Below are positions 5,684 through 31,910 of a stretch of 32,000 nt of DNA, piece by piece (the first letter of the stretch is position 1; every line of letters starts with the position of its first letter). The DNA comes from an uncultured Anaerolineales bacterium. Lineage in GTDB: Bacteria; Chloroflexota; Anaerolineae; CG2-30-64-16. Below the pieces are notes generated by a model. The model was not told the origin of the DNA, did not search any database, and saw only the letters and a program-made list of their open reading frames with translations. The position numbers were made by a program, and so were the translations under genes. The stretch is taken from positions 51,958 to 83,957 of the forward strand of contig CAZKEF010000019.1 in assembly GCA_964551735.1 (NCBI GenBank), given 5' to 3'.

Positions 5684-5753
5684 GGCATACCTCCATTTGG
5701 GTGGACCGATAAGAATGGACTTATCAGCAAGATTGGGGGAGATCTGTATGCGC

Positions 5754-5782
5754 AGAATATCACTAACCAAGGTTGATGTCAA
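5754..5782 (-). promoter_or_regulatory. Sigma70-like promoter for the large surface-protein gene
   Basis: The minus strand reads TTGACA (5782-5777), a 17-nt spacer, then TATTCT (5759-5754) with TGa immediately upstream (extended -10). It sits about 70 nt upstream of the ATG at 5683. Confidence 0.5.
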
Positions 5783-18457: not shown

Positions 18458-18486
18458 TTGTCATTCTTTGCACCCTGTGCTATAAT
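18458..18486 (+). promoter_or_regulatory. Near-consensus sigma70 promoter for the two small membrane-protein genes
   Basis: TTGTCA (18458-18463), a 17-nt spacer, then TGcTATAAT (hexamer 18481-18486). A 6-bp inverted repeat ATTGCT-n6-AGCAAT (18485-18502) overlaps the predicted start site and could be an operator. Confidence 0.65.
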
Positions 18487-18522
18487 TGCTTTTGATAGCA
18501 ATATCCATCAAGGAGGCCCCCT

Positions 18523-18828
18523 GTGACCCTCGCCAACTGGCGTGATCTCGCAGTTGTTCTGCTAGCCGTTGAGGCGTTTTTCATCAGCCTGATACCGGGT
18601 GTGATCCTCTACTTTGCCGTGCGCGGGATGCTGTGGGTGATCCGCAAACTGCGCGTCACGGCACCCACTGTCCAGGGCTACTTCCGTAAAGCAGCCGATA
18701 TCTCCGAACAGGTTAGCCAGCGCACTGCTGCCCCCTTCATTGCGGTCAGTGCCACCCTGGCCCAGGTGAATCGCTGGCGGTCCGCACCCATGACCTTGCT
18801 GAAATCAATGAAAGAGGCATCCCCGTGA
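18523..18828 (+). CDS. Small membrane protein (101 aa), hypothetical
   Basis: The GTG start has an AGGAGG RBS 6 nt upstream. There is one clear TM segment (LAVVLLAVEAFFISLIPGVILYFAV). Confidence 0.6.
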   Translation: MTLANWRDLAVVLLAVEAFFISLIPGVILYFAVRGMLWVIRKLRVTAPTVQGYFRKAADISEQVSQRTAAPFIAVSATLAQVNRWRSAPMTLLKSMKEASP

Positions 18829-19049
18829 CATCCCGTAACACAGCTATCATTATCGGCGGCGCGGTCGGCGCTGTGCTGGGCGCCACTGCCGCCTGGGCAT
18901 ACACGCAAGCGCAACAGGGCAAACTGATCAGCGGCGTCGAGGCCGGCCAACAACTGCGGCTGCAAGCCGGAGCGCCGGACTATGTCAAAATCGCGGTGGC
19001 GGTAGTTGCCCTGGTACGCCAGGTGACTGACCTGTTCAAGCCGGGTTGA
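18825..19049 (+). CDS. Small Gly/Ala-rich membrane protein (74 aa), hypothetical
   Basis: GTGA start/stop overlap with the previous gene, with AAAGAGG 7 nt upstream. The TM-like segment is AIIIGGAVGAVLGATAAWAY. Confidence 0.55.
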   Translation: MTSRNTAIIIGGAVGAVLGATAAWAYTQAQQGKLISGVEAGQQLRLQAGAPDYVKIAVAVVALVRQVTDLFKPG

Positions 19050-19312: not shown

Positions 19313-21097
19313 ATGAAACAACGAACTGCGCTGACGGGTTGGCTCCTTCGCCTGCGCCAGGCATTATCCGCCCACCGATGGGTCATCATCGGCCTGCTCT
19401 GGCTAGCCACTCTCCTCTTAGGCTATATCGGTTTCAGCAACTACGCGATGGCTACAGGCGGTGTCCAAGCGCGCATGGACACGCTTTATCTGACGATCCA
19501 GCTCTTTATCTTGGAGTCGGGATCGGTGCCCGGTCCGAAGCCGTGGGAACTGGAGGCCGCGCGGTTGCTGGCCCCCACTGTGGCGGCATACACCGCCGTG
19601 CAAGCGTTGGCGCTGCTGTTTGCAGAGCAATTCCAGGCCCTTCAGCTCCGCTTCGCACGCCACCACGAGATCATCTGTGGGCTGGGCCGTCGCGGCACGC
19701 TGTTGGCCCGTTCTTTTCGGGCGCAGGGCCATCGGGTTGTCGTCATCGAACAGGACCACAACAACGACGCCATCAGAGCCTGCCGGCAGCAGGGTATCAT
19801 CGTGCTCATTGGTGACGCCCGCAACGCTGATCTGCTCCTACGCGCCGGCGTGCTGCACGCTCGCCATCTGATCGCCGTGTGCGACGATGATGGGGTAAAC
19901 GCCGAGATCGCCGTGCAGGCCCGACGGCTGTCCGCTCGCCGGGGCGGGTTGCCCCTCACGTGCCTGGTGCACCTGGTGCAACCGCAGTTGTGTGAGTTGT
20001 TGCACGACCGCAGCTTCGATTCAGCCAATCATAACACCTTCCGCCTGGAATTCTTCAATACGTTTGACCTGGGCGCGCAACTCTTGCTGGAGAGATTCCC
20101 GCCGCTGCGGGAAGGGCAAACCGGGCCACCGCACATGGTGCTCCTGGGGTTCGGCAGCCTGGGGCAAAGCCTGGCCCTCCGCGCCGCACGCGCTCGGACG
20201 TGTGGCCGTGAACCCCCCAATGAGCGCTTGCGGATCACAGTGGTCGATCGCGAGGCCGAGCGAAAAGTCAAGCTGATCATTCTGCGGTATCCCCGGCTGC
20301 ACGAAGCGTGTGACTTGGTTCCGTGCGCGATTGACCTGCGGGGGCCCGAGTTTCAACAGGCGGACTTCCTGCGGGATGAGGCGGGCCAGCTGTGCGTCAC
20401 CGCTATCTACAGTTGCCTTGACGACGATGCACAGGGGCTAATGGCCGCGCTGACGTTGGCAGCCCATGTGCGCGATCAGGATATCCCTATCGTCATCCGC
20501 ACCAGCAGCCGCGGTGGCCTGGCAAGCCTGCTCTACCGGGATGACGCCACAGACAGTTACAGCTCACTGCACGCATTTCCTCTCCTGGAGTACAGTTGCA
20601 CGCCGAGCCTGGTTTTGGGGGGCATGCATGAAACCGTGGCCCGCGCATTGCATCAACGGTATGTGCAACAAGGCGAGGCGCAAGGCCAGACCCCCGCATC
20701 GAATCCCTCCATAGTGCCCTGGGACCAATTGACGGCCGAAATCCAAGAGGGCAACCGCACCCAGGCGGATGCGATCAGCGCGATGCTCCGTGCAGCAGGG
20801 TACAGCCTGGCCCCACTCACAGATTGGAGCGCCTGGCGATTCCGCTTCCCCGAAGCTGATGTCGAGCTGATGGCCCAATTGGAGCACAAACGTTATGTTA
20901 CCGAACGGCTCCGTGCCGGCTGGTCCCTGGGGCCTAAAGACATCGCCGAAAAAACGAATCCGAACCTGGTGCCGTGGGAACAACTGACGCCCGACGCGCA
21001 AGAGCGCACCCGCCACCCCATCCGTGAGCTACCCTGCATCTTGGCCGAGGCCGGGCTTGAAGTGTATCCGATGAAAAGGGGTGGCAAACATGGATGA
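19313..21097 (+). CDS. Channel-like 2-TM protein with tandem Rossmann (TrkA-N/RCK-like) domains and a C-terminal bipartite RyR module
   Basis: The N-terminus has TM1 WVIIGLLWLATLLLGYIGF, a pore-helix-like DTLYLTIQLFILESGSVPGP (no TVGYG filter) and TM2 LLAPTVAAYTAVQALALLF. Rossmann 1 is EIICGLGRRGTLLARSFRAQGHRVVVIEQD. Rossmann 2 is HMVLLGFGSLGQSLALRAA. The C-terminal RyR-like repeats are ARALHQRYV...VPWDQLTAEIQEGNRTQADAI and LEHKRYVTERLRAGWSLGPKDIAEKTNPNLVPWEQLTPDAQERTRHPIRELPCILAEAGLEV. Confidence 0.75.
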   Translation: MKQRTALTGWLLRLRQALSAHRWVIIGLLWLATLLLGYIGFSNYAMATGGVQARMDTLYLTIQLFILESGSVPGPKPWELEAARLLAPTVAAYTAVQALALLFAEQFQALQLRFARHHEIICGLGRRGTLLARSFRAQGHRVVVIEQDHNNDAIRACRQQGIIVLIGDARNADLLLRAGVLHARHLIAVCDDDGVNAEIAVQARRLSARRGGLPLTCLVHLVQPQLCELLHDRSFDSANHNTFRLEFFNTFDLGAQLLLERFPPLREGQTGPPHMVLLGFGSLGQSLALRAARARTCGREPPNERLRITVVDREAERKVKLIILRYPRLHEACDLVPCAIDLRGPEFQQADFLRDEAGQLCVTAIYSCLDDDAQGLMAALTLAAHVRDQDIPIVIRTSSRGGLASLLYRDDATDSYSSLHAFPLLEYSCTPSLVLGGMHETVARALHQRYVQQGEAQGQTPASNPSIVPWDQLTAEIQEGNRTQADAISAMLRAAGYSLAPLTDWSAWRFRFPEADVELMAQLEHKRYVTERLRAGWSLGPKDIAEKTNPNLVPWEQLTPDAQERTRHPIRELPCILAEAGLEVYPMKRGGKHG

Positions 21098-23570
21098 AAA
21101 AACATCTGATTTCGGATGGACGCAGGCCCAGATCGCACAATATGAGCTGGCCTTCCCGCGCTATCAGCAATATGCCGACACGCTGCACAGCGTGCTGAAC
21201 CAGGCCACCAAGAAACATGCGCCCCACGCGATCGTACAAGCGCGACCCAAGGCCATCGCCAGTTTCGCGGAGAAGATCCAGCGCAAGCGCCACAAGTACC
21301 GCGACCCGATCAACCAGATCACCGACCTGTGCGGCGGCCGAGTTATCACGCACACCCCGGAGGAAGTCCGGGCGATGTGCGCCTTCATCGAGCAGCATTT
21401 CACCATTGACTGGGATAACACCATCGATGTATCGCAGCGCCTCAAGCCGACCGAGTTCGGCTATCGGTCAGTGCATTACATCGCGCAGTTCAAGCCCGGT
21501 GTCTTCCCCAACGATATTGTCACCACGGAAATCCCAGAGACAGTGTACGGCCTCAAAGCCGAAATCCAAGTCCGCACCATTTTGGAGCACGCCTGGGCTG
21601 ATTTCAACCATCGGCTGGTCTATAAGAGCCCCTTCCCCATCCCCACCAAATGGCAGCGCGAATTCGCGGGCCTGGCCGCCATCCTGGAACGCACAGACAC
21701 CGCGTTTGCCGCCATTGAAACCGGATTCAAGACCTACGCGACCAACTATGGCACCTACATGACCGCTGAACAGATGCGGGATGAGATCGCTTTGCTGGAG
21801 ATCGTCATGGCATGTGACCCCGACAACGTCGATCTCGCCCATCGGATCGGCAAGTTGGCGGTTACGTTGGGCGATTGGAAGAAGGCGATCAGCATCTTCT
21901 CACGTTATGTTCACACAGGCTATCAACCCATCCTCAAGGACCTCGGGATCGCGCTGTGCAAGCTGCACGTTGAGAGGCCGGACAGCCCCGAGTATCAGCA
22001 AGGCCGGCGCTACCTGGAGCAGGCCAGCGCGCCTGAATACCGGGATGCGGATGCCCTGGCGTCGCTGGCAAGCACCTGGAAACGGTCTGACCCGGATCGG
22101 GCGCGGCAACTCTACCGGCAAGCATTTGAGGCGAATCCCGAAGATCCGTATGCGTTGGGGCAGTACCTGGAATACGAGATCGCCCATCGACGCGACATGC
22201 ACCTGGCAACACTGCTCCGCCCGGTCATCGAAGCGGCGATCGAACGGTGTCGCGAGCGCGCAGAGGTGGGGGTCGACCTGCCGTGGGCATACTACGACAT
22301 CGGCAGGTTCTCGCTACTGCTAGATAGACCCTATGATAGCCTGAACGCTTACATTAGGGCCGTCCACTTAACCAACGATGACTGGATGGTCGAAACCTCA
22401 TTGCAGTCGGTGGAGCGTCTCGCCGTGGTGGCTGCGATCCTACCAGGTCATGCATGGGTGCGACGCTTCCTATGGCTGGCGCGCGCGACCAAATTCGACG
22501 TGGCGCAGGCCCGAGAGGAGCTCAAGCGGCTGGCATCAGCCGGCCAAGCGCCGATTCGCGGGCCAGTGGTATTGGTGGCCGGGGCCTGCGATGCCAGCGA
22601 GGAGCACCTGATCCAGGGCTACCGGCCCCTGTTGATGACCGCCTTTGCCGGCTTCCACGGCACCATCATCTCAGGCGGCACCCGCGCCGGGGTCGCCGGC
22701 CTGGCGGGTGACGTGCAGCAGACCTACCCGGCCGACATCCGCACCATCGGCTATGTCCCGCAGCGACGCCCCACCGATGTCATGATGGATGAGCGCTACG
22801 GTGAGATCCGTTACACCACGGGCGATGACTTCAGCCCGCTGGAGCCGCTCCAATACTGGACCGACCTGGTCGCCTCCGCGATTGCCGCGTCCGATGTCAA
22901 GCTGATCGGCATGAGCGGAGGGACCATCGCCGCAGTGGAATACCGTATGGCCCTGGCGCTGGGCGCACGGGTCGCGGTGATTGAGGCCAGCGGCCGGGCC
23001 GCGGCCAGGCTACTTGCCGACGACAACTGGCGCACCTCGGAAGCGCTCCTGCTCTTGCCGGCCGAGGGACAGATCGTGCACGAATTCGTCCGCCCAACGA
23101 TGGACCAACTTCTGCCTGCACAGCGAGAACACATCGGCCAGGCCATCCACCGGGCCTACTGTGAAGCAGAGGCCAACCTCCTGCAGTACGACGATCCTGC
23201 GTTGGCGCCCTGGGGCGCGTTGCTGGACTATCTGAAGGAATCCAACCGGCTGCAGGCTGATCATATCCCGGAGAAGATGCGCCAGATCGGCTGCCGCATT
23301 GTGCCGGCGCACGGCCGCGCAGCAACACCGATCACGTTCACAGATGCCGAGATTGAGACGCTGGCTTGTGCCGAGCATGCGCGTTGGGTCATCGAGCGCG
23401 TACGCGACGGCTGGAAACCGGGCGCGCAACGCGACGTGTTGCACAAAATCAGTCCCTACCTCACAGCATGGGACGCGCTGCCCGAGGAAATCAAAGAGCG
23501 CAGCCGATGCATCGTGCGCAAGATCCCGACATTCCTTGCCGAGGTGCAGCTCGAAATTCAACGCGGGTGA
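21090..23570 (+). CDS. RelA/SpoT-family nucleotide pyrophosphokinase fused to TPR repeats, an LSDAT-type SLOG domain and a bipartite RyR module
   Basis: The ATG at 21090 overlaps the upstream stop (ATGGATGA) and has AAGGGGTGG upstream; an alternative GTG lies at 21081. The synthetase motifs are all present: ARPKAIASFAEKIQRK, DLCGGRVI, EFGYRSVHYI, AEIQVRTILEHAWADFNHRLVYK. The middle region is TPR-like (aa ~240-470). The SLOG part reads GPVVLVAGACD...TIISGGTRAGVAGLAGD...IGYVP...LIGMSGGTIAAVEYRMALALGARVAVIEASGRAAARLLAD, and the last motif resembles the GSGRaADlLA of TRPM-type LSDAT domains. The C-terminal RyR-like repeats are IHRAYCE...APWGALLDYLKESNRLQADHI and AEHARWVIERVRDGWKPGAQRDVLHKISPYLTAWDALPEEIKERSRCIVRKIPTFLAEV. 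Confidence 0.8.
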   Translation: MDEKTSDFGWTQAQIAQYELAFPRYQQYADTLHSVLNQATKKHAPHAIVQARPKAIASFAEKIQRKRHKYRDPINQITDLCGGRVITHTPEEVRAMCAFIEQHFTIDWDNTIDVSQRLKPTEFGYRSVHYIAQFKPGVFPNDIVTTEIPETVYGLKAEIQVRTILEHAWADFNHRLVYKSPFPIPTKWQREFAGLAAILERTDTAFAAIETGFKTYATNYGTYMTAEQMRDEIALLEIVMACDPDNVDLAHRIGKLAVTLGDWKKAISIFSRYVHTGYQPILKDLGIALCKLHVERPDSPEYQQGRRYLEQASAPEYRDADALASLASTWKRSDPDRARQLYRQAFEANPEDPYALGQYLEYEIAHRRDMHLATLLRPVIEAAIERCRERAEVGVDLPWAYYDIGRFSLLLDRPYDSLNAYIRAVHLTNDDWMVETSLQSVERLAVVAAILPGHAWVRRFLWLARATKFDVAQAREELKRLASAGQAPIRGPVVLVAGACDASEEHLIQGYRPLLMTAFAGFHGTIISGGTRAGVAGLAGDVQQTYPADIRTIGYVPQRRPTDVMMDERYGEIRYTTGDDFSPLEPLQYWTDLVASAIAASDVKLIGMSGGTIAAVEYRMALALGARVAVIEASGRAAARLLADDNWRTSEALLLLPAEGQIVHEFVRPTMDQLLPAQREHIGQAIHRAYCEAEANLLQYDDPALAPWGALLDYLKESNRLQADHIPEKMRQIGCRIVPAHGRAATPITFTDAEIETLACAEHARWVIERVRDGWKPGAQRDVLHKISPYLTAWDALPEEIKERSRCIVRKIPTFLAEVQLEIQRG

Positions 23571-23585
23571 AAGGAGGCGGACACC

Positions 23586-26567
23586 ATGGCATCGGAATCC
23601 AATAGATACGATGTCTTCATCAGCTATCCGCACGCCCAAAAGACGATGGCCGATGCCGTGTGCGCGACGTTGGAGCAGAATAAGATCCGCTGCTGGATCG
23701 CGCCCCGTGACGTGCTGCCCGGCGAACCGTTCGCGAAAGCCATCATCCGCGCCATGAACGAAAGCCGTTTGTTCGTCCTCGTCTTCAGCGCCGAGACCAA
23801 CGAGTCAAATCACGTAAAAAACGAAGTTGAGCGGGCGGTGTCCAAGGGGCTCTCGATCATCGTGTTCCGCGTTGAAGATGTCGTGCCTACCGAAGAGATG
23901 GAGTACTACCTGTCGCGGCGCCATTGGCTGGACGCGATGACGCCACCGATCGAGGCCCATTTCCAGAAACTGATCCAGGCCATCAGGGCGTTGCTGGCCA
24001 TCCCATCCTTGGAGGCCGCGCCGGACCAAAGCGAACAGAAGGTGGCCGACTTGCGCGTACGCGCCCGGGAAGCCGCGGCGCAAGCCGACTGGGACCTGGC
24101 CGTGGCCCTGCTAGGTCAGGCTGCGACGGTCTCACCCGATGACCCCAAGACCGCCGAGATGTTACAGGCCGTCCGGCGTGACCAGCATCTGGCTGACCTG
24201 CGCCGGCAAGCCCAAGAACGTCTGGCCATCCGCGACTGGACCGGCGCCATTGCCATCCTGGAGGAAGCCTCCAGCTTGCAGCCGGATGACGCCGACCTAA
24301 CGGCCATCTTGCGTCGCGCACAGAGCAGTCAGCGTCTGATCGAGCTGCGCGGCCAGGCTGAGGAGTTCCTGACCGTTCGAGATTGGGCCGGCGCCATCGC
24401 GATCTTGGAGAAAGCCATACAACTGGCCCCCGACGACCCTGAACTTACTGGCAGCTTGCGCCGCGCGCAACGCGGCCAAAGCCAGGATGATCTCAAAGCC
24501 CAGGCCCTGCACCTGGCCGCACAACACGATTGGCAGGGCGTGCTCGTGCTGCTGAAGCAGGCGCCCGAGCTGGCCGCAGAGGACGCCGAAGTGCAGCGGC
24601 TGGCAGCGCAAGCGGCGCGTGAGCAGCGGATCGCTGATCTGCAGGTGCGCGCCAAGTCAGCGTACAGCGCCCGGCAATGGGCGCAGGCGCTGCCGTTGCT
24701 GGAAGAGCTGCGCGCGTTGACGCCCGATGACGCCGCCGCCCGCGATATGCTGGCCACGACCACCCGCGAGGGCGCCCGCCAGAGGCAACTCGACGCGCTG
24801 ATAGCCCATGCCGAGGACACCGTGACCCGCGCACGCAGCGCGGCCACTACAGGCCAATGGGAGGCGGCCGAGCGCGGTTGGCAGGATGCCGCCTACGCAT
24901 GGGGCACCGTAGTCACCGCGCTGGAAGAGCACCTCGCGATGGCGCCCCAGGACGCTACGCGGCGGGAGCGCCTGACCGAGGCTCAGCGCGGGCAAAAGGA
25001 GGCGGCACAACAGGCTGGACGCCTGCGGGATCTGGCCCAGCGCTATGCCGACGCGCAGGCCGCGCTCGACGCGGCCCGGCCCGACCAGGCCGTGCCGTTG
25101 CTCAGCGCCATCATAGCCGAGGCGCCGGGCTATCGCGATACGGTGGAGCTGTTGCGCCGTGCGCAACGCAAGGTGAAAGGTGGTCCCTTCCCGCGCCGCC
25201 GCATGCTCTGGATCGGCGCAGCCGCACTGGTGCTCATCGTGGTAACGGCGGCAATCTTGCTGTCGGGCGTCTTGCAGCGCGGCGCCGCGTCTGAGCGCGC
25301 GACGACATTGCAGCAAGCGCTGACGAACCAATGGGTGGACGCGCAGATCCGCGGCACTGGCGCGGCCTACGGCGACTGCATCACGGCCCGGCTGACGCGG
25401 CGCATCCCAGACATCCTGCCGCTTGACCTCGCCCAGGGCACCCTTCTGCTCAGCAAAACCTCAACAGTGCAGGACATGGTCGTGCTGCGGGTCCGGGCCA
25501 TCATCAACCAGGATGGTGGCCTAACCCCCACAGACGCGATCCGCATCGCCGATGACAACCCCCAGGAGTATCTGATCGAAGCATATGGGCTGAACAGCAG
25601 CCTGGCGGCGCCGGGCGTCGGGGCCGCCTTCGTCGTCGCCGGCCCGGCAGACGAAGCTGTTCAAAGCACCCTGCGGGCAGCCGCCCAGCTCACCCCTGAC
25701 GGCGCCGCACAGGCGGGCGCAGCGCTGCAATTGGCGCTTTGGCTGCACGCTGACCACGAAAACCGTGCTGCCATCTGCCAGCGCATCAACTGCAAGGCCG
25801 AGGACCTGGCGCTGGCAGAACAGATCCTGGGGCTGGCCGGCTTCGGTCCGCCCCCCACACCCACTGCCACGGCCACAGCCCTGCCGACCGCCACCCTGAC
25901 GGCGGAACCAACGATCGCCACGCCCTTCCTGCGCCGCGCAGCCACCGACACCCCCACGCCGACCGCCACTGCGACATCCACGCCGCTGCCATCAGCCACC
26001 ATGACCGCCACCGCAACGCCGGCCCGCAGCGCTACACCGACGCCACGCCCAAGCGCCACCGCAACGCGCACCCCGGCCGCGCCGCTGCGCATCGTCACGC
26101 CAACGCGTCCGCCTGCGCCGCCGGCGTCCGGCCTGGCCCCGCAGACACCGGCCGACGGCCAGATCTTCATCGGCCGCAGCACTGTCATCCGGCTGGCCTG
26201 GACGCCCGCCACACGGCCGCTGGCTGGGGACGAATATTACCTGGTGACGATCCTTTTCCCTCACGAACAAGCAACATGGACCGACTCTCAATGGACGCGC
26301 ACTCCAGAGGTCACCGTACCGGCTTACCTGTACGATAATGTGACCGGCGACCGCAGCTTCCGCTGGCAGGTCTCCCTGGTGCGCCTGAACGCGGGCGACC
26401 CTTCAGGAGACCCGCAAGGCAAGACGACCCTGATCGTTGCACCCGGCGCGTGGCGCACCTTCAGGTGGCTGCCCGAGGCTGAAGGCGGGGGCGGGGGTGG
26501 GGGCGGCGAGGTCATACCGACGAACACCCCCCGCCCTGAAGAACCGACAATAACGCCCAGGCCTTAA
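23586..26567 (+). CDS. N-terminal TIR-domain protein with 49-aa helical repeats, one TM helix and a large extracytoplasmic C-terminal region
   Basis: An AAGGAGG RBS lies 8 nt upstream, and the gap from the previous stop is 15 nt. The TIR_2-like N-terminus is YDVFISYPHAQKTMADAVCATLEQNKIRCWIAPRDVLPGEPFAKAIIRAMNESRLFVLVFSAETNESNHVKNEVERAV. Five to six repeats of the DWxxAIAILEEAxxLxPDD type follow. The TM helix is RRRMLWIGAAALVLIVVTAAILLSGVL, with positive charges on the N-side, so the TIR domain is cytoplasmic. After it come a ~190-aa domain, a PT-rich linker, a ~130-aa beta-rich domain and a Gly8 tract. Confidence 0.85.
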   Translation: MASESNRYDVFISYPHAQKTMADAVCATLEQNKIRCWIAPRDVLPGEPFAKAIIRAMNESRLFVLVFSAETNESNHVKNEVERAVSKGLSIIVFRVEDVVPTEEMEYYLSRRHWLDAMTPPIEAHFQKLIQAIRALLAIPSLEAAPDQSEQKVADLRVRAREAAAQADWDLAVALLGQAATVSPDDPKTAEMLQAVRRDQHLADLRRQAQERLAIRDWTGAIAILEEASSLQPDDADLTAILRRAQSSQRLIELRGQAEEFLTVRDWAGAIAILEKAIQLAPDDPELTGSLRRAQRGQSQDDLKAQALHLAAQHDWQGVLVLLKQAPELAAEDAEVQRLAAQAAREQRIADLQVRAKSAYSARQWAQALPLLEELRALTPDDAAARDMLATTTREGARQRQLDALIAHAEDTVTRARSAATTGQWEAAERGWQDAAYAWGTVVTALEEHLAMAPQDATRRERLTEAQRGQKEAAQQAGRLRDLAQRYADAQAALDAARPDQAVPLLSAIIAEAPGYRDTVELLRRAQRKVKGGPFPRRRMLWIGAAALVLIVVTAAILLSGVLQRGAASERATTLQQALTNQWVDAQIRGTGAAYGDCITARLTRRIPDILPLDLAQGTLLLSKTSTVQDMVVLRVRAIINQDGGLTPTDAIRIADDNPQEYLIEAYGLNSSLAAPGVGAAFVVAGPADEAVQSTLRAAAQLTPDGAAQAGAALQLALWLHADHENRAAICQRINCKAEDLALAEQILGLAGFGPPPTPTATATALPTATLTAEPTIATPFLRRAATDTPTPTATATSTPLPSATMTATATPARSATPTPRPSATATRTPAAPLRIVTPTRPPAPPASGLAPQTPADGQIFIGRSTVIRLAWTPATRPLAGDEYYLVTILFPHEQATWTDSQWTRTPEVTVPAYLYDNVTGDRSFRWQVSLVRLNAGDPSGDPQGKTTLIVAPGAWRTFRWLPEAEGGGGGGGGEVIPTNTPRPEEPTITPRP
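24087..24854 (+). repeat. Intragenic tandem repeat with an exact 147-nt (49-codon) period, coding TPR-like helical hairpins
   Basis: The D/Q-W codons that open each unit fall at 24087, 24234, 24381, 24528 and 24675, which are exactly 147 nt apart. A longer 180-nt unit then runs to 24855. The units are diverged at the DNA level. Confidence 0.8.
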
Positions 26568-26608
26568 GGTTGGCAGCCGCGAACCAGACGCGCAGAGGAG
26601 GGACAACC

Positions 26609-29602
26609 ATGAAAACAAACCCGACACGCCACCGCACCCCCCGCATAGGGCTGCTGGCGCCGCTGCTGATCGCGACGCTGATCCTGGTCGGCGGCCTCAA
26701 CAGCGCCGCCGCGCCGCCGGCTCAAACAGGCGCCCCCTTCGAGGCGCGGCCGCTGCCGCCGGAGGCGCTCTCGTGGGGCGGATCTCCCGCCGTCAGTGCG
26801 CAAGCCTCGCGCAGCCCCAAGCTCGACTCATCCCTGGACGGCCTGGCCGCCGCAGCCCAGGATTCCCCGCAAACGGCATTGGCTCTGGCCCTCTCCCGCT
26901 CGCTGAAGTTGTCGGGAGATCGGGTTCAAGTACAGATCGTCACCCACGCGGCCGGGCTGCAACGAGCCATCCAGGCGGTGGCCGAGTCCGGCGGCGAAGT
27001 GACCAAAATCGGCAGCGACGCAGCCCTGATCCAGGGATGGCTGCCGGTCACGGCCCTGGAGGCCGTAGCCGCGCACGACGATATCTATCGCATCCACCGG
27101 CCGGCGGAACTGATCTACCTGGAACACCCGCAGGCTGGCAGTGTGACGACCGAAGGGCTGGCGGCGCTCAACGGCCCGGCCTGGCACACGGCCGGCTACC
27201 GGGGCGCTGGCGTCAAGATCGGCATCATTGACGGCGGCTTCCTGGGCTACACAGGCCTGCTGGGCACGGACCTGCCAGCGTCGGTCACTGCAAAAAACTT
27301 CGTGGACGGCGAAACCGACGGGCAGGTTGACGGGACCTCCAAACACGGCACCGCCTGCGTGGAGATCATCTACGATGTGGCGCCTGATGCGACCTTCTAC
27401 CTGGCCAAGATCGCCACGAACCTGGATCTGCAAGCAGCCGTGGCCTGGCTCAAAGACACGCACCACGTAGACGTGATCTCTACCTCCATCGGGTGGTACC
27501 ACTTGACGCCGGGCGACGGCACCGGTGAGTTTGCCGACCTGGTGCAGGATGCCCGAGACGCCGGCATCTTGTGGGCCACGGCGGCCGGGAGCGTACGCGA
27601 GGCGCACTGGGGCGGCCTGTACTATGACCCCGGCGGCACCGACACGCATCACTATAACCTCGAACAGGACGTGAACTATTTCGGCCCCGGCGACGGGAAC
27701 GCTTACCTGATCCCTGCGGGGTACCCGGTGACCGTCTTGCTCCGCTGGGATGACTGGACGGTCGTGAACCAGGATTACGATCTCTTCCTGCTGCGTTGGA
27801 ACGGCGAAAGCTGGGATATCGTTGCCGAAAGCAGTCAGGTTCAAGACGGCAGCCCGGGTCAGACGCCCACCGAGGACGTCTCAATCGTGGCCAGCGGCGC
27901 ATCTGCGCCCTATGGCTTCGTCATCGTGCGTTATGACAGCGACCGCGCGGTCAACTTCGAGGTGTTTGCGCCCAACCCTGGCGCGCGCCTCGATGAGATC
28001 TTGCCTGCCCGCAGCCTGGCTAACCTGGCGGACGCGCCGGACGTGGTCAGCGTGGCGGCGGTAGACGTGGTGTCGCCCTACCCGCAGGAGGTGTTCAGCT
28101 CAGAAGGGCCGACCAACGGACCCGGCGGCGCGGAAACGGGCGGGTTCATCAAGCCGGATATCGCCGCCTATTCCAGCGTGTCCACCGTCAGCTACGGCAC
28201 TACAGACAAGTTCAGCGGCACCTCGGCCGCTGCGCCCCACGTGGCCGGCGCCGCGGCGTTGGTGTTGAACGCCTACCCAGCCTATACCCCGAACCAAGTG
28301 GAATCGTTCCTGGAGGGGCGTGCCGTGGACATGGGGGCCAGCGGGATGGATACGATCTACGGCTACGGTCGGCTGCACCTGGGCGCCCCGCCGTCAGCCA
28401 CCACCACAACCCCCTCTCCCAGCCCAACGCCGACAGGAACGGTGACACGCACCGCGACGCCCACGGTGACCCGGACGCCAACCCCGACGATCACCCGAAC
28501 CCCCACGGCCAGGCTGCTCTTCCTGCCCCTGGTGCTGAAAAGCGGACTCTGCGACATTTATGAGCCGAACGATAGCATCGCTGCGGCCTGGGGTCCCCTG
28601 ATATCGGGCCAGGATTACCGCGCACGCCTATGCAAAGGCGACTACGAGGATAACTACTACCTGAACGCACTGCACACCCAACCGCTGGTCGTCAGGATAC
28701 GCCTGCCAGCCGCTCTGGTGAACCACACTGACGCCTGGATTTACCATGAGAGCAACCTCAAGACACCGCTTCCCGGTTGCGGCCGCGGCCCCATCACCAG
28801 CACGGATGAAACCGTTAGCTGTGCGATCACCCTGGACGGCCGCTACACGATCCGGCTATACACACACGACTCGAACGTCTACTATGAGAACAACCAGGAT
28901 TACATCTTGACCGCGACCTTTGCGCCCCAGGGCGGCACGCCCGTGTCACGAACACTCCTCTCCGTCGGCGATGCAACGGTCCTGGAGGGGTACTCAGGCT
29001 TTAACACAGGCACGGCAGCGGACATGTGGGCGGGCTATGATGACGGCATGGAACCCGACGGCAAGATCGTGCGCAGCCTGATCAAGTTCGACCTGAGCAG
29101 TGTGCCCGCGGGCGCCACCGTGCAAAGCGCCAAGCTGCGGGTCTACTACATGGGCTACTATGACTTTAGCAACCGCGAGCGCACCATCACCGCATACCGG
29201 TGCGTCGGCAACTGGACTGAGCTGGGCGTCAATTGGAACAACAAACCCAGCCCGGGCACGGCCTACGGCAGCGTAGTCATCATCTCAAACACCAATTGGG
29301 GCTGGCGCGAGTTGGACGTGCAGGGCCTGGTGCAGGGGTGGGTCAACGGCAGCATCCCCAACCAGGGCGTCATGCTGCGCGGACCGGAGGTCTCCGGCGC
29401 CGACTCGTCCTATCGCACTTTCAGCACGCGTGAGGGCCCCAACGCGCCCCAGTTGGCGATCACCTACCTTGCTGTAGCAGCCGCAAGCCCACCGCCGACA
29501 ATGCAGGCGCCTGTGCCGGCTGGCCCGAGCCTGCGTGAACAGTTGGGCAGCCCGAGCGCACCGACGGACGCCGACGGCAGGGAGCAGCAGATGTCGCGTT
29601 AG
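26609..29602 (+). CDS. Secreted S8 (subtilisin-like) serine peptidase with C-terminal PPC-like and DNRLRE-like domains
   Basis: A GAGGAGGG RBS lies 6 nt before the ATG at 26609. The signal peptide is MKTNPTRHRTPRIGLLAPLLIATLILVGGLNSAAA. The catalytic triad contexts are GVKIGIIDGGF (Asp), HGTACVEII (His) and GTSAAAPHVAGAAALV (Ser). After a PT linker come LLFLPLVLK, then CDIYEPNDSIAAAW (pre-peptidase C-terminal-like) and LLSVGDATVLEG...SLIKFDLSSVPAGATVQSAKLRVYY...WTELGVNWNNKP (DNRLRE-like, from recall). Confidence 0.85.
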   Translation: MKTNPTRHRTPRIGLLAPLLIATLILVGGLNSAAAPPAQTGAPFEARPLPPEALSWGGSPAVSAQASRSPKLDSSLDGLAAAAQDSPQTALALALSRSLKLSGDRVQVQIVTHAAGLQRAIQAVAESGGEVTKIGSDAALIQGWLPVTALEAVAAHDDIYRIHRPAELIYLEHPQAGSVTTEGLAALNGPAWHTAGYRGAGVKIGIIDGGFLGYTGLLGTDLPASVTAKNFVDGETDGQVDGTSKHGTACVEIIYDVAPDATFYLAKIATNLDLQAAVAWLKDTHHVDVISTSIGWYHLTPGDGTGEFADLVQDARDAGILWATAAGSVREAHWGGLYYDPGGTDTHHYNLEQDVNYFGPGDGNAYLIPAGYPVTVLLRWDDWTVVNQDYDLFLLRWNGESWDIVAESSQVQDGSPGQTPTEDVSIVASGASAPYGFVIVRYDSDRAVNFEVFAPNPGARLDEILPARSLANLADAPDVVSVAAVDVVSPYPQEVFSSEGPTNGPGGAETGGFIKPDIAAYSSVSTVSYGTTDKFSGTSAAAPHVAGAAALVLNAYPAYTPNQVESFLEGRAVDMGASGMDTIYGYGRLHLGAPPSATTTTPSPSPTPTGTVTRTATPTVTRTPTPTITRTPTARLLFLPLVLKSGLCDIYEPNDSIAAAWGPLISGQDYRARLCKGDYEDNYYLNALHTQPLVVRIRLPAALVNHTDAWIYHESNLKTPLPGCGRGPITSTDETVSCAITLDGRYTIRLYTHDSNVYYENNQDYILTATFAPQGGTPVSRTLLSVGDATVLEGYSGFNTGTAADMWAGYDDGMEPDGKIVRSLIKFDLSSVPAGATVQSAKLRVYYMGYYDFSNRERTITAYRCVGNWTELGVNWNNKPSPGTAYGSVVIISNTNWGWRELDVQGLVQGWVNGSIPNQGVMLRGPEVSGADSSYRTFSTREGPNAPQLAITYLAVAAASPPPTMQAPVPAGPSLREQLGSPSAPTDADGREQQMSR

Positions 29603-29648: not shown

Positions 29649-29706
29649 AAAAAAGCAGAGACGCCAGGTTCGCCATCAGGCTGCTCCTGGCGCCTCTCTT
29701 TTTGTT
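29649..29706. terminator. Bidirectional intrinsic terminator between convergent genes
   Basis: agagacgccagg (29657-29668) pairs with cctggcgcctct (29686-29697) at 11 of 12 positions. The hairpin is flanked by an A-run upstream (gcaaaaaagc) and a T-run downstream (ctttttgtt), so each strand sees a stem followed by a U-tract. Confidence 0.65.
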
Positions 29707-29725: not shown

Positions 29726-31018
29726 TCAAGGTTCGCCGGCAGGCGCATCTGGCGCCAACCTTGCGTCCGCCTCTTCGGGGCCCGGCCCGGCGCGCATATC
29801 CTCAGGCGCATCTGGCCCAAGGCCCGCACCTGGCGCCACAAGCGCCTTCACCTCCGCGGCCGCATCCGGCGCCAGCTCGGCCTCTGCACGCGCATCGGGT
29901 AACAGCGCGGCATCGGGCGCCGGCGCGGCCGGGGTCAACGGGTGGGGCAAGGCCGGCGCCGGCATCGCCGCACCCTCGCCCCACACATCGGCCAGGGAGC
30001 GGCGGCTACCGTAAAGCGCCGGCAGGTATTTGGCAAACAAGTCGGCCGGCATCCGGCGCCGCACCGGCTCGATCCCTTCCTCCCACAGCCGATGCAACCG
30101 TTCGTAGTCCAGCTCAGCAGTGATCAGCCCTTCCGCCCCCAACGCGCCCATCTCCACCAGCACGCCGGAATAGCGCGGGGTCATTTCCAGCGGCGCGTAA
30201 ATCCCGGATTTGCCCACGAAAGACCATGCCAGGCTGTCGTCGGCCGCGAGGAAGTTACGCCCCACCAGGAAGCTGGTCAGCGCGCAGATGCGGTTCTCCT
30301 GCGCCTGGGCCAGCGTGCCCTGCCGGATGTACGCGGCCAGCGCCTCGCTTCCCGTGGCGGCCAGCGTCACCAGCAGATCGGCGCCCTGGTATGCCAGCAC
30401 GCGGCCAGCTTCGGGATAAAGCGCCTCCTCGCCCAGCAGGATGCCCAGCCGGCCGGCCGGCGTGCTGATCACATGCCAGGCGTCGCCGGGCGTTGCCAGC
30501 CCCTGGTCCTCCTGCGCCAGCGCCATCTTGTCATGCCGCCCCAAGATCGCGCCGTCCGGCCCGAACACCGTGGCTCGGTGGCGCACCGTCCCCCCGGCAT
30601 CCGGCAAATATGCGCTGCCCGCCACCACGGTGACCTCGTAGGCGCGCGCCAGTTCACCGAAGACCGCCTCGTAATCGGCTGCCAGGGTCGCGGGATCAGC
30701 CTGGAGGAGGTGCTCGAACGCGCGGCGGAAATTAGCGCCGAGCAGCGAGGCTGTGCCACTGGCCAGCGCACTGCGCGTCCGCTTCCACAGCGAAACCCGG
30801 CCGCGCGCCGGCACGTCGGCCCGCTTCAACAAGCTCACACGGAAACCTTCCACGCGGTGGCTGGCAGCCATCACGCCGGCCAATGCGGGGAAGACCACCA
30901 ATTCGGCCCCCTTGGCCCGCGCCATGGCCAGGAAGCGTGTCAGTTCTTTACGATAGGCTTCTGTCGAGTCAAACAGGCGCATCTGTTGCTGTGCGCTGGC
31001 AACGATCAGTTTGTCCAT
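29726..31018 (-). CDS. Degenerate carbon-nitrogen-hydrolase-fold protein (catalytic Glu and Cys both absent) with a low-complexity APDA-rich tail
   Basis: The order of CN_hydrolase-like motifs is preserved. VVFPALAGV stands where FPE is expected, RHDKMAL retains the Lys, and LGILLGEEALYPE has Gly where Cys is expected. The C-terminal ~80 aa are Ala/Pro/Asp-rich (APAPDAALLPDARAEAELAPDAAAE...). The gene is divergent from the microcompartment genes. Confidence 0.65.
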   Translation of the reverse strand: MDKLIVASAQQQMRLFDSTEAYRKELTRFLAMARAKGAELVVFPALAGVMAASHRVEGFRVSLLKRADVPARGRVSLWKRTRSALASGTASLLGANFRRAFEHLLQADPATLAADYEAVFGELARAYEVTVVAGSAYLPDAGGTVRHRATVFGPDGAILGRHDKMALAQEDQGLATPGDAWHVISTPAGRLGILLGEEALYPEAGRVLAYQGADLLVTLAATGSEALAAYIRQGTLAQAQENRICALTSFLVGRNFLAADDSLAWSFVGKSGIYAPLEMTPRYSGVLVEMGALGAEGLITAELDYERLHRLWEEGIEPVRRRMPADLFAKYLPALYGSRRSLADVWGEGAAMPAPALPHPLTPAAPAPDAALLPDARAEAELAPDAAAEVKALVAPGAGLGPDAPEDMRAGPGPEEADARLAPDAPAGEP

Positions 31019-31146
31019 GTCTCCGCCTTTGCTCCATCAATGGATTGGGTGCACTCAGGTTCGGTCGTAGGGGCGGGTTTCTTCGCATCGCTGGGAACAC
31101 CAGGTTCTTCCGACGATTTTACCATATGCCTGAGGCGGATCACAAT

Positions 31147-31176
31147 TTGCTGGAAGGCGGGGCCGCCGGGTATAAT
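31147..31176 (+). promoter_or_regulatory. Sigma70-like promoter for the microcompartment genes
   Basis: TTGCTG (31147-31152), an 18-nt spacer, then TATAAT (31171-31176). It sits about 45 nt upstream of the ATG at 31222. Confidence 0.5.
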
Positions 31177-31221
31177 AGAAGCACATTTCGGCAAATAACC
31201 CACAACCCGTGAGACCACTCT

Positions 31222-31500
31222 ATGCAACTTGCCACCGTCATCGGCACATTGGTCGCCAGCCAGAAATACCGGGGCCTGGAAGGCGTCAAGCTGCTGATCG
31301 TCCAGCCGTTGGATCGCGACCAACAGCCGCAGGGCGAGCCCGTCGTCGCAGCCGACGCCACCGCGCAGGCTGGACCCGGCGAGTTGGTCTTCATTATCGC
31401 CAGCCGCGAGGCTGCGCTGGCCCTTCCGGAGTCCTTCGTGCCGGTGGATCATGCGGTGGTGGGGATTGTGGATGAAGTGGGACTGGAAGCTAGAAACTAG
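31222..31500 (+). CDS. Bacterial microcompartment vertex protein (BMC-P, EutN/CcmL family)
   Basis: MQLATVIGTLVASQKYRGLEGVKLLIVQPLD...GELVFIIASREAALALPESFVPVDHAVVGIVDEV is typical of EutN/CcmL. The last 6 codons and the stop lie inside a heptamer repeat. Confidence 0.85.
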   Translation: MQLATVIGTLVASQKYRGLEGVKLLIVQPLDRDQQPQGEPVVAADATAQAGPGELVFIIASREAALALPESFVPVDHAVVGIVDEVGLEARN

Positions 31501-31553
31501 AAGCTAGAAGCTGGAAGTTGAAGTGTATCCGGCTTCCAGTATCCAGCTTCCAA
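31483..31553. repeat. Heptanucleotide repeat array: 6 direct units, then 3 units in inverted orientation
   Basis: CTGGAAG CTAGAAA CTAGAAG CTAGAAG CTGGAAG TTGAAGT gtatccgg CTTCCAG TATCCAG CTTCCAA. CTTCCAG is the reverse complement of CTGGAAG, so a hairpin is possible. The array spans the stop of BMC-P 1 and the gap before BMC-P 2. Confidence 0.85.
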
Positions 31554-31568
31554 TATCGCGGAGCGCCC

Positions 31569-31910
31569 ATGTATATCGGTCAGGTTGCAGGCACGGTCGT
31601 CGCCACCATCAAACACCCCATGTTCGCCGGGCATAAGCTGCTGCTGGTCGAGCGGCTCGATCTCGCGGGCCGCGCCATGCCCAAGTACGACATCGCGGTG
31701 GATTCCGTGCAGGCGGGTGTGGGTGATCGGGTGTTGGTGCTGGACGAGGGCAACAGCGCTCGGCAGGTGTTGCACGTAGAGCCGTGGGGACCGGTGCGCG
31801 CGGTGATCGTGGGGATCATTGATGAGATTGATCTGCCGCTGCTTTCCAGACCAGGTTTCTCAGAGAAACCTGGTCTGGAAAGCAGCGCGGGCGAACAGGG
31901 GGCCGCGTGA
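31569..31910 (+). CDS. Bacterial microcompartment vertex protein (BMC-P, EutN/CcmL family), second copy with a C-terminal extension
   Basis: MYIGQVAGTVVATIKHPMFAGHKLLLVERLD...GDRVLVLDEGNSARQVL...VRAVIVGIIDEIDL is EutN/CcmL-like. I chose the ATG at 31569 over the ORF-track start at 31518. The 25-aa tail PLLSRPGFSEKPGLESSAGEQGAA is encoded by a palindrome. Confidence 0.8.
   Translation: MYIGQVAGTVVATIKHPMFAGHKLLLVERLDLAGRAMPKYDIAVDSVQAGVGDRVLVLDEGNSARQVLHVEPWGPVRAVIVGIIDEIDLPLLSRPGFSEKPGLESSAGEQGAA
31837..31887. repeat. Perfect 51-nt palindrome (25-bp arms, 1-nt centre)
   Basis: I checked base by base that cgctgctttccagaccaggtttctc (31837-31861) is the exact reverse complement of gagaaacctggtctggaaagcagcg (31863-31887). 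Confidence 0.95.

Follow-up and report, generated by a model that had tools for sequence, protein, structure and literature searches.

A membrane-spanning TIR protein of an uncultured Anaerolineales bacterium is encoded next to a secreted PPC-CBM96 partner and RyR-bearing neighbours

A 32,000-nucleotide stretch of DNA from an uncultured Anaerolineales bacterium (contig CAZKEF010000019.1; the window) carries on its forward strand a gene at 23586-26567 whose 993-amino-acid (aa) product consists of a TIR domain, helical repeats, a transmembrane (TM) helix, a module resembling the thioester domain (TED), a Pro/Thr-rich (PT) linker, an FN3-like domain and a TPRP tail. This protein, here called the receptor, is genuinely linked, judging from gene order across loci, to a predicted secreted protein with PPC-like and CBM96 domains that is encoded directly downstream (26609-29602, + strand; the partner). 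We favour, with a probability of about 0.45, the explanation that these genes form an outside-in TIR signalling system of a Thoeris-like kind, in which a receptor-type TIR enzyme would act together with effectors bearing RyR domains. The domain anatomy, the predicted topology, the linkage of the genes and the conservation patterns were read directly from the sequences. What is deduced from them, and worded conditionally below, is the enzymatic activity, the kind of cue, the messenger and the domains that would read it, as well as the role in the cell (anti-phage, or envelope or cell-cell signalling).

Fifteen full-length orthologues of the receptor were found, with identities of 48-66%. Every one was derived from a metagenome or a metagenome-assembled genome (MAG), and the layout was the same across the alignment. 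The comparisons of the receptor given below cover 16 sequences, namely the window protein and these orthologues. The TIR domain (aa 8-135, 23607-23990) matched Pfam TIR_2 (PF13676) over aa 10-130 with an E value of 7.6e-20 and a score of 72.1 bits, where the cut-off is 28, and the receptor N-terminus was likewise above the cut-off of PF01582 (TIR). The putative catalytic residue Glu80, which lies in the motif VKNEVE, is almost invariant among the orthologues and pairs with the Glu of the TIR domain of oyster TIR-STING. The mean pairwise identity among the orthologues was 85% in the TIR domain, compared with 58-67% in the other domains and 49-57% in the TM helix, the PT linker and the tail; no other part of the receptor is nearly as constrained as the TIR domain. 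The nearest TIR sequences of solved structure were animal ones, Hydra TRR-2 and oyster TIR-STING. Because the catalytic Glu is retained, the receptor TIR is probably an enzyme and not an adaptor platform. It is probably of the NADase type, for which cleavage or cyclisation of NAD+ would be expected.

The TIR domain is followed by TPR-like helical repeats (24033-25190), about eight units of approximately 49 aa, which were recognised from weak TPR_14 and TPR_7 matches and from indels of repeat size in the alignment. The copy number varies: the window protein has one unit more than most orthologues, and two orthologues (P0011 and P0013) have at least three extra units. A 19-residue hydrophobicity scan detected one strong hydrophobic segment in the whole receptor, starting at aa 538, and the single TM helix was assigned to aa 540-563 (25203-25274), with a predicted N-in/C-out orientation. 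In the window protein, the 15 residues on the N-side of the helix include seven K/R and no acidic residues, whereas those on the C-side include two K/R and one acidic residue. A positive-inside bias was seen in all 16 receptor sequences, with 4-8 K/R in the N-flank versus 1-3 in the C-flank. On the basis of this bias, of the leaders carried by relatives of the ectodomain and of the FN3-like distal domain (both described below), the TIR domain and the repeats are predicted to be cytoplasmic and the C-terminal part of about 430 aa extracytoplasmic.

An earlier note on this DNA, made from the sequence alone, had placed the TIR domain and the helical repeats on the N-side of one TM helix, had taken the positive N-flank to predict a cytoplasmic TIR, and had divided the roughly 430 aa outside the cell into a domain of about 190 aa, a PT linker and a beta-rich domain. 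These assignments were borne out by the Pfam TIR_2 and weak TPR matches, the single hydrophobic segment, the seven K/R of the N-flank and the bias in 16 of 16 sequences, and the structural models and FN3 matches of the ectodomain. Its description of the topology as resembling that of a Toll-like receptor was right with respect to the single pass and the cytoplasmic TIR, but not with respect to polarity, since N-in/C-out is the reverse of that of a Toll-like receptor.

The ectodomain consists of a 190-aa domain, a Pro/Thr linker of approximately 90 aa and a 120-aa beta domain. The membrane-proximal domain (aa 566-756, 25281-25853) was modelled with AlphaFold2 (AF2) at a pLDDT of 89.9; the model has nine strands and, behind them, four helices. 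A Foldseek search of this model against the PDB gave no significant relative and no TED, the best matches being translation-factor beta-barrels (E value 0.03, TM 0.30). A Pfam search with the domain of the window protein alone gave no match to TED or any other family even at an E value of 10. An exhaustive profile search placed the domain in a family comprising 587 or more sequence clusters, for which Pfam has no model. Many members of this family are short and carry the domain behind a brief N-terminal leader, and signal or lipobox leaders were found in all four that were examined; these leaders argue for an extracytoplasmic location of the ectodomain.

Among 160 domains of the family, the motif EAY-C-LD had Cys in 128 and the motif I-Q-xA-I-W had Gln in all 160. 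We take these to be the two signature motifs of the TEDs of Gram-positive adhesins. In ten family members searched with Pfam TED (PF08341), aligned sub-threshold matches were obtained in nine and the cut-off was passed in two. When the family profile was compared with PDB sequences, the best match was 4c0z, a TED, which aligned at both motifs (E value 0.014), and the third was 6fwv, also a TED, in one stretch spanning both motifs (E value 0.43). Since Foldseek gave nothing significant, the link to TEDs rests on the motifs and the profile matches, and the domain is described here as TED-like, its fold match being unconfirmed. The family may represent a new structural class of thioester domain.

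In the window protein, the position of the thioester Cys is occupied by G668 (EAY-G668-LN), and Gly or Ser is found there in all receptor orthologues. A canonical thioester therefore cannot form and, having lost the Cys, the window domain does not qualify by its sequence as a true TED. On the other hand, Gln715 of the second motif (LQLALW) is kept and is invariant in the receptor orthologues. C598 is clade-invariant among these orthologues, and C731 and C736 form a probable disulfide. C598 was considered as a simple stand-in for the lost Cys, but covariation in the family did not support this, since a C598-type Cys also occurs together with the canonical Cys in seven domains. Compared with the TEDs of adhesins (Cpa, SfbI and TIE; PF08341), the ectodomain family shows both motifs at compatible spacing, whereas the window domain lacks the thioester Cys and is sited at the membrane and not at the tip of a stalk. 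Close relatives (P0095-P0112) have two copies of the domain flanking a TPR array, with Ser replacing Cys. The gene of the closest non-TIR relative, P0095, is truncated at a contig end and has an ABC ATPase gene downstream.

The Pro/Thr-rich spacer (25854-26120), read from the sequence, varies in length in the orthologue alignment. The distal domain (aa 846-966, 26121-26483) was modelled at a pLDDT of 93.5 as an FN3-like beta-sandwich, and its top Foldseek matches were all FN3 domains (probability 1.0, TM about 0.5). The Foldseek comparison of ectodomain models, which the earlier note had proposed, gave FN3 matches for the distal domain and no solved relative for the membrane-proximal one. The receptor ends in a Gly run and a tail of the form PTxTPRP..EPTxTPRP-COOH (26484-26564), in which T990, P991, R992 and P993 are invariant in all 16 sequences.

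The initiation codon of the partner gene (ATG at 26609) lies 41 nt past the stop codon of the receptor gene and is preceded by AGGAGG. The product comprises a signal peptide, an S8 subtilase domain, a PT linker, an FLPLV-type motif, a PPC-like domain, a CBM96/DNRLRE domain and a tail. At its N-terminus, a hydrophobic signal-type segment follows a positively charged start. The S8 catalytic region (27191-28378) matched Peptidase_S8 with an E value of 4.5e-24, and the triad motifs are intact at D208 (IIDGG), H246 (HGTAC) and S539 (GTSAAAP). By its profile match, triad motifs and signal sequence, the window partner is predicted to be a secreted S8 subtilase. These results agree with the earlier note, which had described an S8 protease gene with a strong ribosome binding site (RBS) and a signal peptide at this distance. 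An intrinsic terminator was found behind the partner gene at 29649-29706, a long GC-rich hairpin followed by the U-tract UUUUUGUU, with a folding energy of -58.9 kcal/mol (z -3.1), which supports the terminator that the earlier note had drawn there. A simple pattern scan detected no + strand terminator between the receptor and partner genes; the same scan missed the 29649-29706 hairpin.

The partner's C-terminal half is its conserved core. The motif [KR]xx[FY][LV]P[LAV][LVIM] (RLLFLPLVLK in the window, 28511-28540) stands ahead of the PPC-like domain in nine of nine partners, whether they carry a protease or not. The PPC-like (CDIYEPND...) and CBM96/DNRLRE domains follow at 28550-29467; across this half the window partner is 54% identical to a partner without a protease, that of locus L003, and PPC matches were obtained in its relatives. 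The CBM96 domain, a putative carbohydrate-binding module, matched Pfam CBM96 with an E value of 2e-24 (86.7 bits versus a cut-off of 26) and NCBIfam DNRLRE_dom with an E value of 4.5e-34 (117.9 bits versus a cut-off of 34). A Pfam TGFb_propeptide match on the same domain is a fold-level resemblance only. The tail GP(S/R)LR(D/E)xL...P.D..GR(E/Q) (29468-29599) is present in eight of the nine partners and absent from an M4-CBM96 protein that is encoded next to the pair in L003. The terminal tails of the receptor and the partner, as well as the FLPLV-type motif, could be docking, sorting or cleavage sites. A domain common to the receptor and the partner was also considered and was dropped, because a hidden Markov model (HMM) of the FN3-like domain showed no similarity in the nine partner proteins. 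In Anaerolineae, CBM96/DNRLRE is a promiscuous module of secreted proteins and is joined to C1, caspase-like, S8, M4 and FN3 domains. A homologue search with the partner's C-terminal half gave chiefly CBM96-only matches and missed known orthologues, so its counts are unusable for co-distribution.

The genomic context was surveyed by exact-protein look-ups, and scans of GTDB genomes and of JGI metagenomes with the ectodomain profile gave one locus each. In all nine loci with visible downstream DNA, the next gene downstream of the TIR gene is on the same strand at a distance of 35-166 nt. The products of all nine downstream genes carry a signal sequence and a PPC-like domain (CDxYEPN), and CBM96/DNRLRE is present in all but one. 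The adjacency is kept across three or more different genomic contexts and arrangements of the genes. A syntenic block with SBP_bac_3/GH-like and CN_hydrolase/EutN flanks in common is formed by the window and loci L003, L004, L005, L010 and L011; loci L001/L002 and L007 have an SNase/response-regulator context without TrkA or RelA genes within 10 kb; and L008 and L012 are rearranged, with a TrkA_N-RyR gene downstream instead of upstream.

The S8 domain was found in only three of the nine partners, those of the window, L001/L002 and L007. The remaining partners, six in number, have the composition signal-Ig-like-PPC-CBM96, in which an Ig-like N-terminus replaces S8. A separate gene for an M4-CBM96 peptidase lies next to the pair in L003-5. 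A protease, either fused S8 or adjacent M4, is thus present in six of the eight loci with sufficient downstream DNA, and these six associations represent only two independent phylogenetic events; no protease was found in L008 and L012 within the DNA at hand. Co-conservation of the downstream gene, which the earlier note had asked about, therefore holds for the gene itself (nine of nine loci) but not for its S8 domain (three of nine). From this distribution, we conclude that the protease domain is an accessory of one clade, added to a conserved secreted partner. In L001 (4960-9407) and L007 (2557-7137), the upstream flank contains LexA/S24-like, FtsK/SpoIIIE, small ORF, response-regulator and SNase genes. 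Because this gene set resembles that of an integrative or conjugative element, the TIR-S8 pair might be mobile there.

Two genes upstream of the receptor gene, both on the + strand, encode proteins with RyR domains. The first (19313-21097) has a 2TM pore-loop-like N-terminus, a TrkA_N (RCK/KTN) domain and RyR (R12-like) repeats, as judged from Pfam, hydrophobicity and an alignment. The second (21081-23570) has a RelA/SpoT synthetase-like domain, TPRs, a SLOG match (LSDAT_prok) slightly under the cut-off and an RyR domain. The second gene overlaps the first by 17 nt and stops 15 nt ahead of the TIR gene, and this overlap and gap suggest translational coupling. RyR (PF02026) matched the two products with 52.1 and 39.5 bits against a cut-off of 27.4. 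The best PDB matches of the RyR region of the TrkA_N-RyR protein were to residues 974-1054 of RyR2 and to the isolated R12 domain of RyR3 (E value 8e-10). In the RelA/SpoT-like domain the motif EIQVRT..HAWA is intact, and PADLOC matched this protein to PDC-S33. Based on these sequence features, the 2TM-TrkA_N-RyR protein is a candidate signal-gated channel and the RelA/SpoT-SLOG-RyR protein a candidate second effector. The N-terminus of the former has a TM1, pore helix, loop and TM2-like arrangement and carries LESGS where K+ channels carry TVGYG.

The association of RyR-bearing genes with TIR-TM genes recurs in Chloroflexota. A TrkA_N-RyR gene is near a TIR-TM gene in the window, L003, L004, L008, L011, L012, L015 and L018. 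In the window, L003, L004 and L011 it precedes the TIR gene, and in L008 and L012 it lies downstream. The TrkA_N-RyR family has more than 549 members, and those with a named source are all from Chloroflexota. Both of the two distant TrkA_N-RyR genes examined have an adjoining TIR-TM-ectodomain gene. Four RyR architectures were found near TIR-TM genes: TrkA_N-RyR, RelA-SLOG-RyR, AAA-RyR and RyR-only. Searches by tblastn gave no match in phages with aa 470-594 (the RyR region) of the TrkA_N-RyR protein and no match in plasmids with the full protein. The individual loci differ in composition. A Dehalococcoidia locus (L015, 1837-10545) contains genes for TIR-TM-Flg_new_2-SBP_bac_5, AAA-RyR, TrkA_N-RyR and a NUDIX hydrolase. 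In a second lineage (L018, 6811-9737), a small TIR-TM protein with a small beta domain is encoded 96 nt upstream of TrkA_N-RyR. L008 (7674-11171) has a second TIR-TM gene, with an LVIVD-propeller ectodomain, beside TrkA_N-RyR, and L012 encodes a 194-aa RyR-only protein.

In a protein search, approximately 55 of the 78 nearest TIR relatives had one strong hydrophobic segment right behind an N-terminal TIR, and the domains behind the helix included WD40, PQQ, TPR, Ig, LRR, FGE-sulfatase, Sel1 and others. By this survey, proteins with a TIR, a TM helix and a variable ectodomain form a large, widespread and uncharacterised class. The remark in the earlier note that characterised bacterial TIR proteins are mostly cytosolic was fair, but the TIR-TM architecture itself is not rare. 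A literature search found no paper that describes the TIR-TM-ectodomain architecture.

In the scheme that we favour, the ectodomain and the secreted PPC-CBM96 protein, which bears a subtilase in the window lineage, would jointly detect a surface event. This event could be a change of a glycan or of the envelope, the adsorption of a phage or contact with a neighbouring cell. The receptor would then cluster and its TIR domains would self-associate; in the known TIR NADases SARM1, AbTir and ThsB, the active site is assembled across TIR-TIR interfaces. The associated domains would cleave NAD+ and yield an ADP-ribose-derived messenger, which would be read by the RyR/R12 and SLOG domains of the channel-like and RelA/SpoT neighbours. 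As an alternative input, the NAD-binding TrkA_N domain might sense the loss of NAD+. The channel would open and the RelA/SpoT enzyme would be switched on, with ion flux and either alarmone synthesis or toxic pyrophosphorylation as outputs, and the cell would be arrested or die. In the window lineage, the subtilase may process the receptor, the junction or tail of the partner itself, or a ligand.

Part of this scheme draws on recent work on Thoeris. [quoted passage not shown] SLOG domains in type I Thoeris read 3'cADPR (PMC13232231; bioRxiv 10.64898/2025.12.03.692087). A survey of December 2025 lists 29 putative Thoeris types; among them, type X, which combines a TIR with an ion channel, protects Bacillus from phages by a signal that is not known there, and the text of the survey contains no occurrence of RyR or TrkA, its passages on transmembrane or extracellular parts being about effectors and not about TIRs (bioRxiv 10.64898/2025.12.03.692087).

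Like Thoeris (type I ThsB/ThsA-SLOG and type X), the window has a TIR with a putative catalytic Glu beside candidate SLOG-like and RyR/R12 readers and a channel-like protein, and weak ThsB-type TIR matches in Pfam, PADLOC and NCBIfam fit the same enzymology. On the other hand, the known ThsB sensors are soluble and cytoplasmic, whereas the window TIR is membrane-anchored with a 430-aa ectodomain, and the candidate effectors of the window are 2TM-TrkA_N-RyR and RelA/SpoT-SLOG-RyR proteins, encoded at a locus that is no obvious defence island by composition. In NCBIfam, only DNRLRE was above its cut-off and a ThcB4 match was far below its own. As neither PADLOC nor NCBIfam gave a call, the receptor system is assigned to no defined Thoeris type, though it would be Thoeris-like in its working. 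The RyR domains of the neighbours belong to PF02026 and match best the R12 module, for which binding of cADPR isomers or adenine nucleotides was shown (PMC13232231); unlike those of phage RyDEP and animal ryanodine receptors, the domains of the window type are encoded on bacterial chromosomes, either stand-alone or fused to channel-like, RelA/SpoT or AAA domains.

Toll-like receptors have an N-terminal LRR ectodomain, one TM helix and a C-terminal cytoplasmic TIR. The window receptor resembles Toll-like and IL-1 receptors in its single pass, its cytoplasmic TIR and the variable, ligand-binding-type domain outside, but its TIR is N-terminal and its ectodomain C-terminal, and neither an LRR/Ig ectodomain nor MyD88-type partners are present. 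Because the polarity is reversed and there was no LRR match, it is not a Toll-like receptor. The PASTA kinases PknB and PrkC have an N-terminal cytoplasmic enzyme, a single helix and C-terminal extracellular sensor domains with spacers. By analogy, the window receptor appears to share their topology and logic, with a TIR and not a kinase as output and with an ectodomain unrelated to PASTA.

Several explanations compete with this scheme, and the place of the partner in the mechanism may be doubted. CBM96/DNRLRE is promiscuous in secreted proteins of Anaerolineae, several of the loci are plainly syntenic (SBP_bac_3, GH-like and CN_hydrolase/EutN flanks), and the FN3-like HMM found no similarity in the partner proteins. 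These observations would fit an S8-PPC-CBM96 protein that is an ordinary secreted enzyme or glycan binder in the same transcription unit or synteny block, while the receptor uses cytoplasmic partners only. We consider such a chance neighbourhood unlikely, because the adjacency is kept in nine of nine loci despite changes of the upstream flank and of the TrkA_N-RyR position, because the partners are set apart from other CBM96 proteins by a shared motif and tail, and because L001 and L007 keep the pair though RyR genes are absent. The opposite extreme, which goes back to the suggestion of the earlier note that the protease might process the ectodomain or its ligand, is a protease cascade in which the secreted subtilase must cut the ectodomain or a ligand to activate the TIR, as Toll is activated via Spaetzle. 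The window recalls the Drosophila system in that the genes for a secreted serine protease and for a membrane protein with a TIR lie together; the two are on the same strand with a 41-nt gap, the protease gene has its own RBS and the terminator comes only after it. Moreover, a secreted protease of one of two unrelated classes occurs in six of eight loci (S8 as part of the partner in the window, L001 and L007, and M4 as a neighbouring gene in L003-5), and the invariant C-terminal tails of the receptor and partner could serve recognition or cleavage. However, S8 is missing from six of the nine partner genes, no protease was seen in the available DNA of L008 and L012, the associations count as two phylogenetic events and not six, and secreted peptidases with a CBM96 tag, belonging to several classes, occur widely in Anaerolineae independently of TIR genes. 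There is no cystine-knot ligand. Since S8 is restricted to three loci and M4 to three others, activation by a protease in the manner of Toll is not the conserved mechanism, and a cascade of this kind is quite unlikely in general, although an obligatory Toll/Spaetzle-like proteolytic step is possible in the window lineage.

Two further explanations concern the receptor itself, and we regard both as improbable. The TIR could work alone, either by depleting NAD+ without a messenger or as a non-enzymatic membrane scaffold, with the RyR proteins being unrelated or being hydrolases that damp the signal. The nearest solved TIRs are of the animal adaptor or receptor type, neither an RyR nor a SLOG gene is near the pair in L001 and L007, and phage RyDEP is a hydrolase rather than a sensor (PMC13232231). 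Against this stand the repeated occurrence of TIR-TM genes together with RyR genes of four architectures and the conservation of Glu80 in the domain under the strongest constraint. Alternatively, signalling could run from the inside, with a cytoplasmic cue sensed by the helical repeats and with the FN3-like domain, the TPRP tail and the CBM96 partner serving only to anchor or position the enzyme; in a filamentous cell, this could be at the wall, sheath or septum, for example. The long cytoplasmic array with its variable copy number, the carbohydrate-binding module of the partner and the loss of the thioester Cys, which argues against covalent capture by canonical TED chemistry, would all be in keeping with such a role. 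This idea does not account well for those TIR-TM relatives that lack long cytoplasmic repeats and carry diverse ectodomains (SBP_bac_5, LVIVD propeller, WD40, Ig and LRR), a variety that is typical of ligand sensing and not of anchoring.

The outside-in, Thoeris-like scheme has weaknesses of its own. The whole case rests on sequence. The ectodomain is without the thioester Cys of its family, and Foldseek found no solved relative for it. The SLOG match (LSDAT_prok, 24.6 bits) is under the Pfam cut-off of 25.4, and the RyR domains could be hydrolases of the signal, like RyDEP, rather than sensors. L001 and L007 contain the TIR-partner pair but no RyR gene within 10 kb; the receptor can thus occur without neighbouring effectors. 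PADLOC called no system at the locus and, with respect to Thoeris, gave only weak ThsB-type TIR matches and no effector, and the composition of the locus shows no obvious defence island. In addition, the receptor family comprises approximately 15 proteins with one GTDB species representative, and because it is so small and phylogenetically narrow, the adjacency statistics rest on few independent events.

To our knowledge, all characterised bacterial TIR signalling systems detect infection intracellularly. A membrane-spanning TIR with diversifying ectodomains would couple surface events to NAD-derived messengers, much as recognition at the surface of animal cells is passed on to TIR assemblies by Toll/IL-1 receptors. 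The locus also points to Thoeris-like effectors that have not yet been described, one being an RCK channel and the other a RelA/SpoT enzyme that carries SLOG and RyR domains. The adjacency of TIR-TM and R12 genes, taken together with the binding of cADPR isomers by phage R12, may offer a simple model in bacteria for the link, still disputed, between cADPR and RyR gating. A broader proposal, which we put forward tentatively and hold to be less probable than the scheme itself, is that Chloroflexota possess a set of receptors at the cell surface, each with a variable ectodomain that would control a cytoplasmic TIR cyclase whose cADPR-type product would directly gate an ion channel via R12-like domains; the sensor of the window would be a TED derivative with a secreted, glycan-binding, protease-tagged co-receptor. 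If this is true, a bacterial pathway would unite a layout like that of Toll receptors with cADPR-to-RyR signalling, and it would provide a minimal and tractable system for testing R12 as the long-sought cADPR site of ryanodine-receptor-type channels.

Other features of the window were noted on both sides of the cluster. A strong sigma-70-like promoter match (11 of 12 positions, with an extended -10 TG) lies at 18458-18486, and two small ORFs are behind it, one at 18523-18828, which encodes a membrane protein, and one at about 18912-19046. In L003, L004 and L010 these two ORFs are likewise found upstream of the cluster, with 55-77% identity. The promoter and the ORF pair (18458-19046) may be where the operon starts, or they may reflect plain synteny. 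Approximately 6.5 kb upstream of the cluster, a gene at 10762-12858 encodes a 698-aa CHAT (caspase-like) protein with a weak HetF-like match; CHAT proteases are found in conflict systems of multicellular bacteria. A 1425-aa ORF on the - strand (1505-5782) gave only weak bacterial Ig-like and CarboxypepD_reg matches near its C-terminus, and its product is probably a surface protein. Downstream of the partner gene, the region 29726-31910 contains a CN_hydrolase gene on the - strand followed by EutN/CcmL-type microcompartment vertex genes at 31222-31500 and 31518-31910. The same CN_hydrolase/EutN flank is present in L003 and L004, and the window and these two loci are therefore syntenic.

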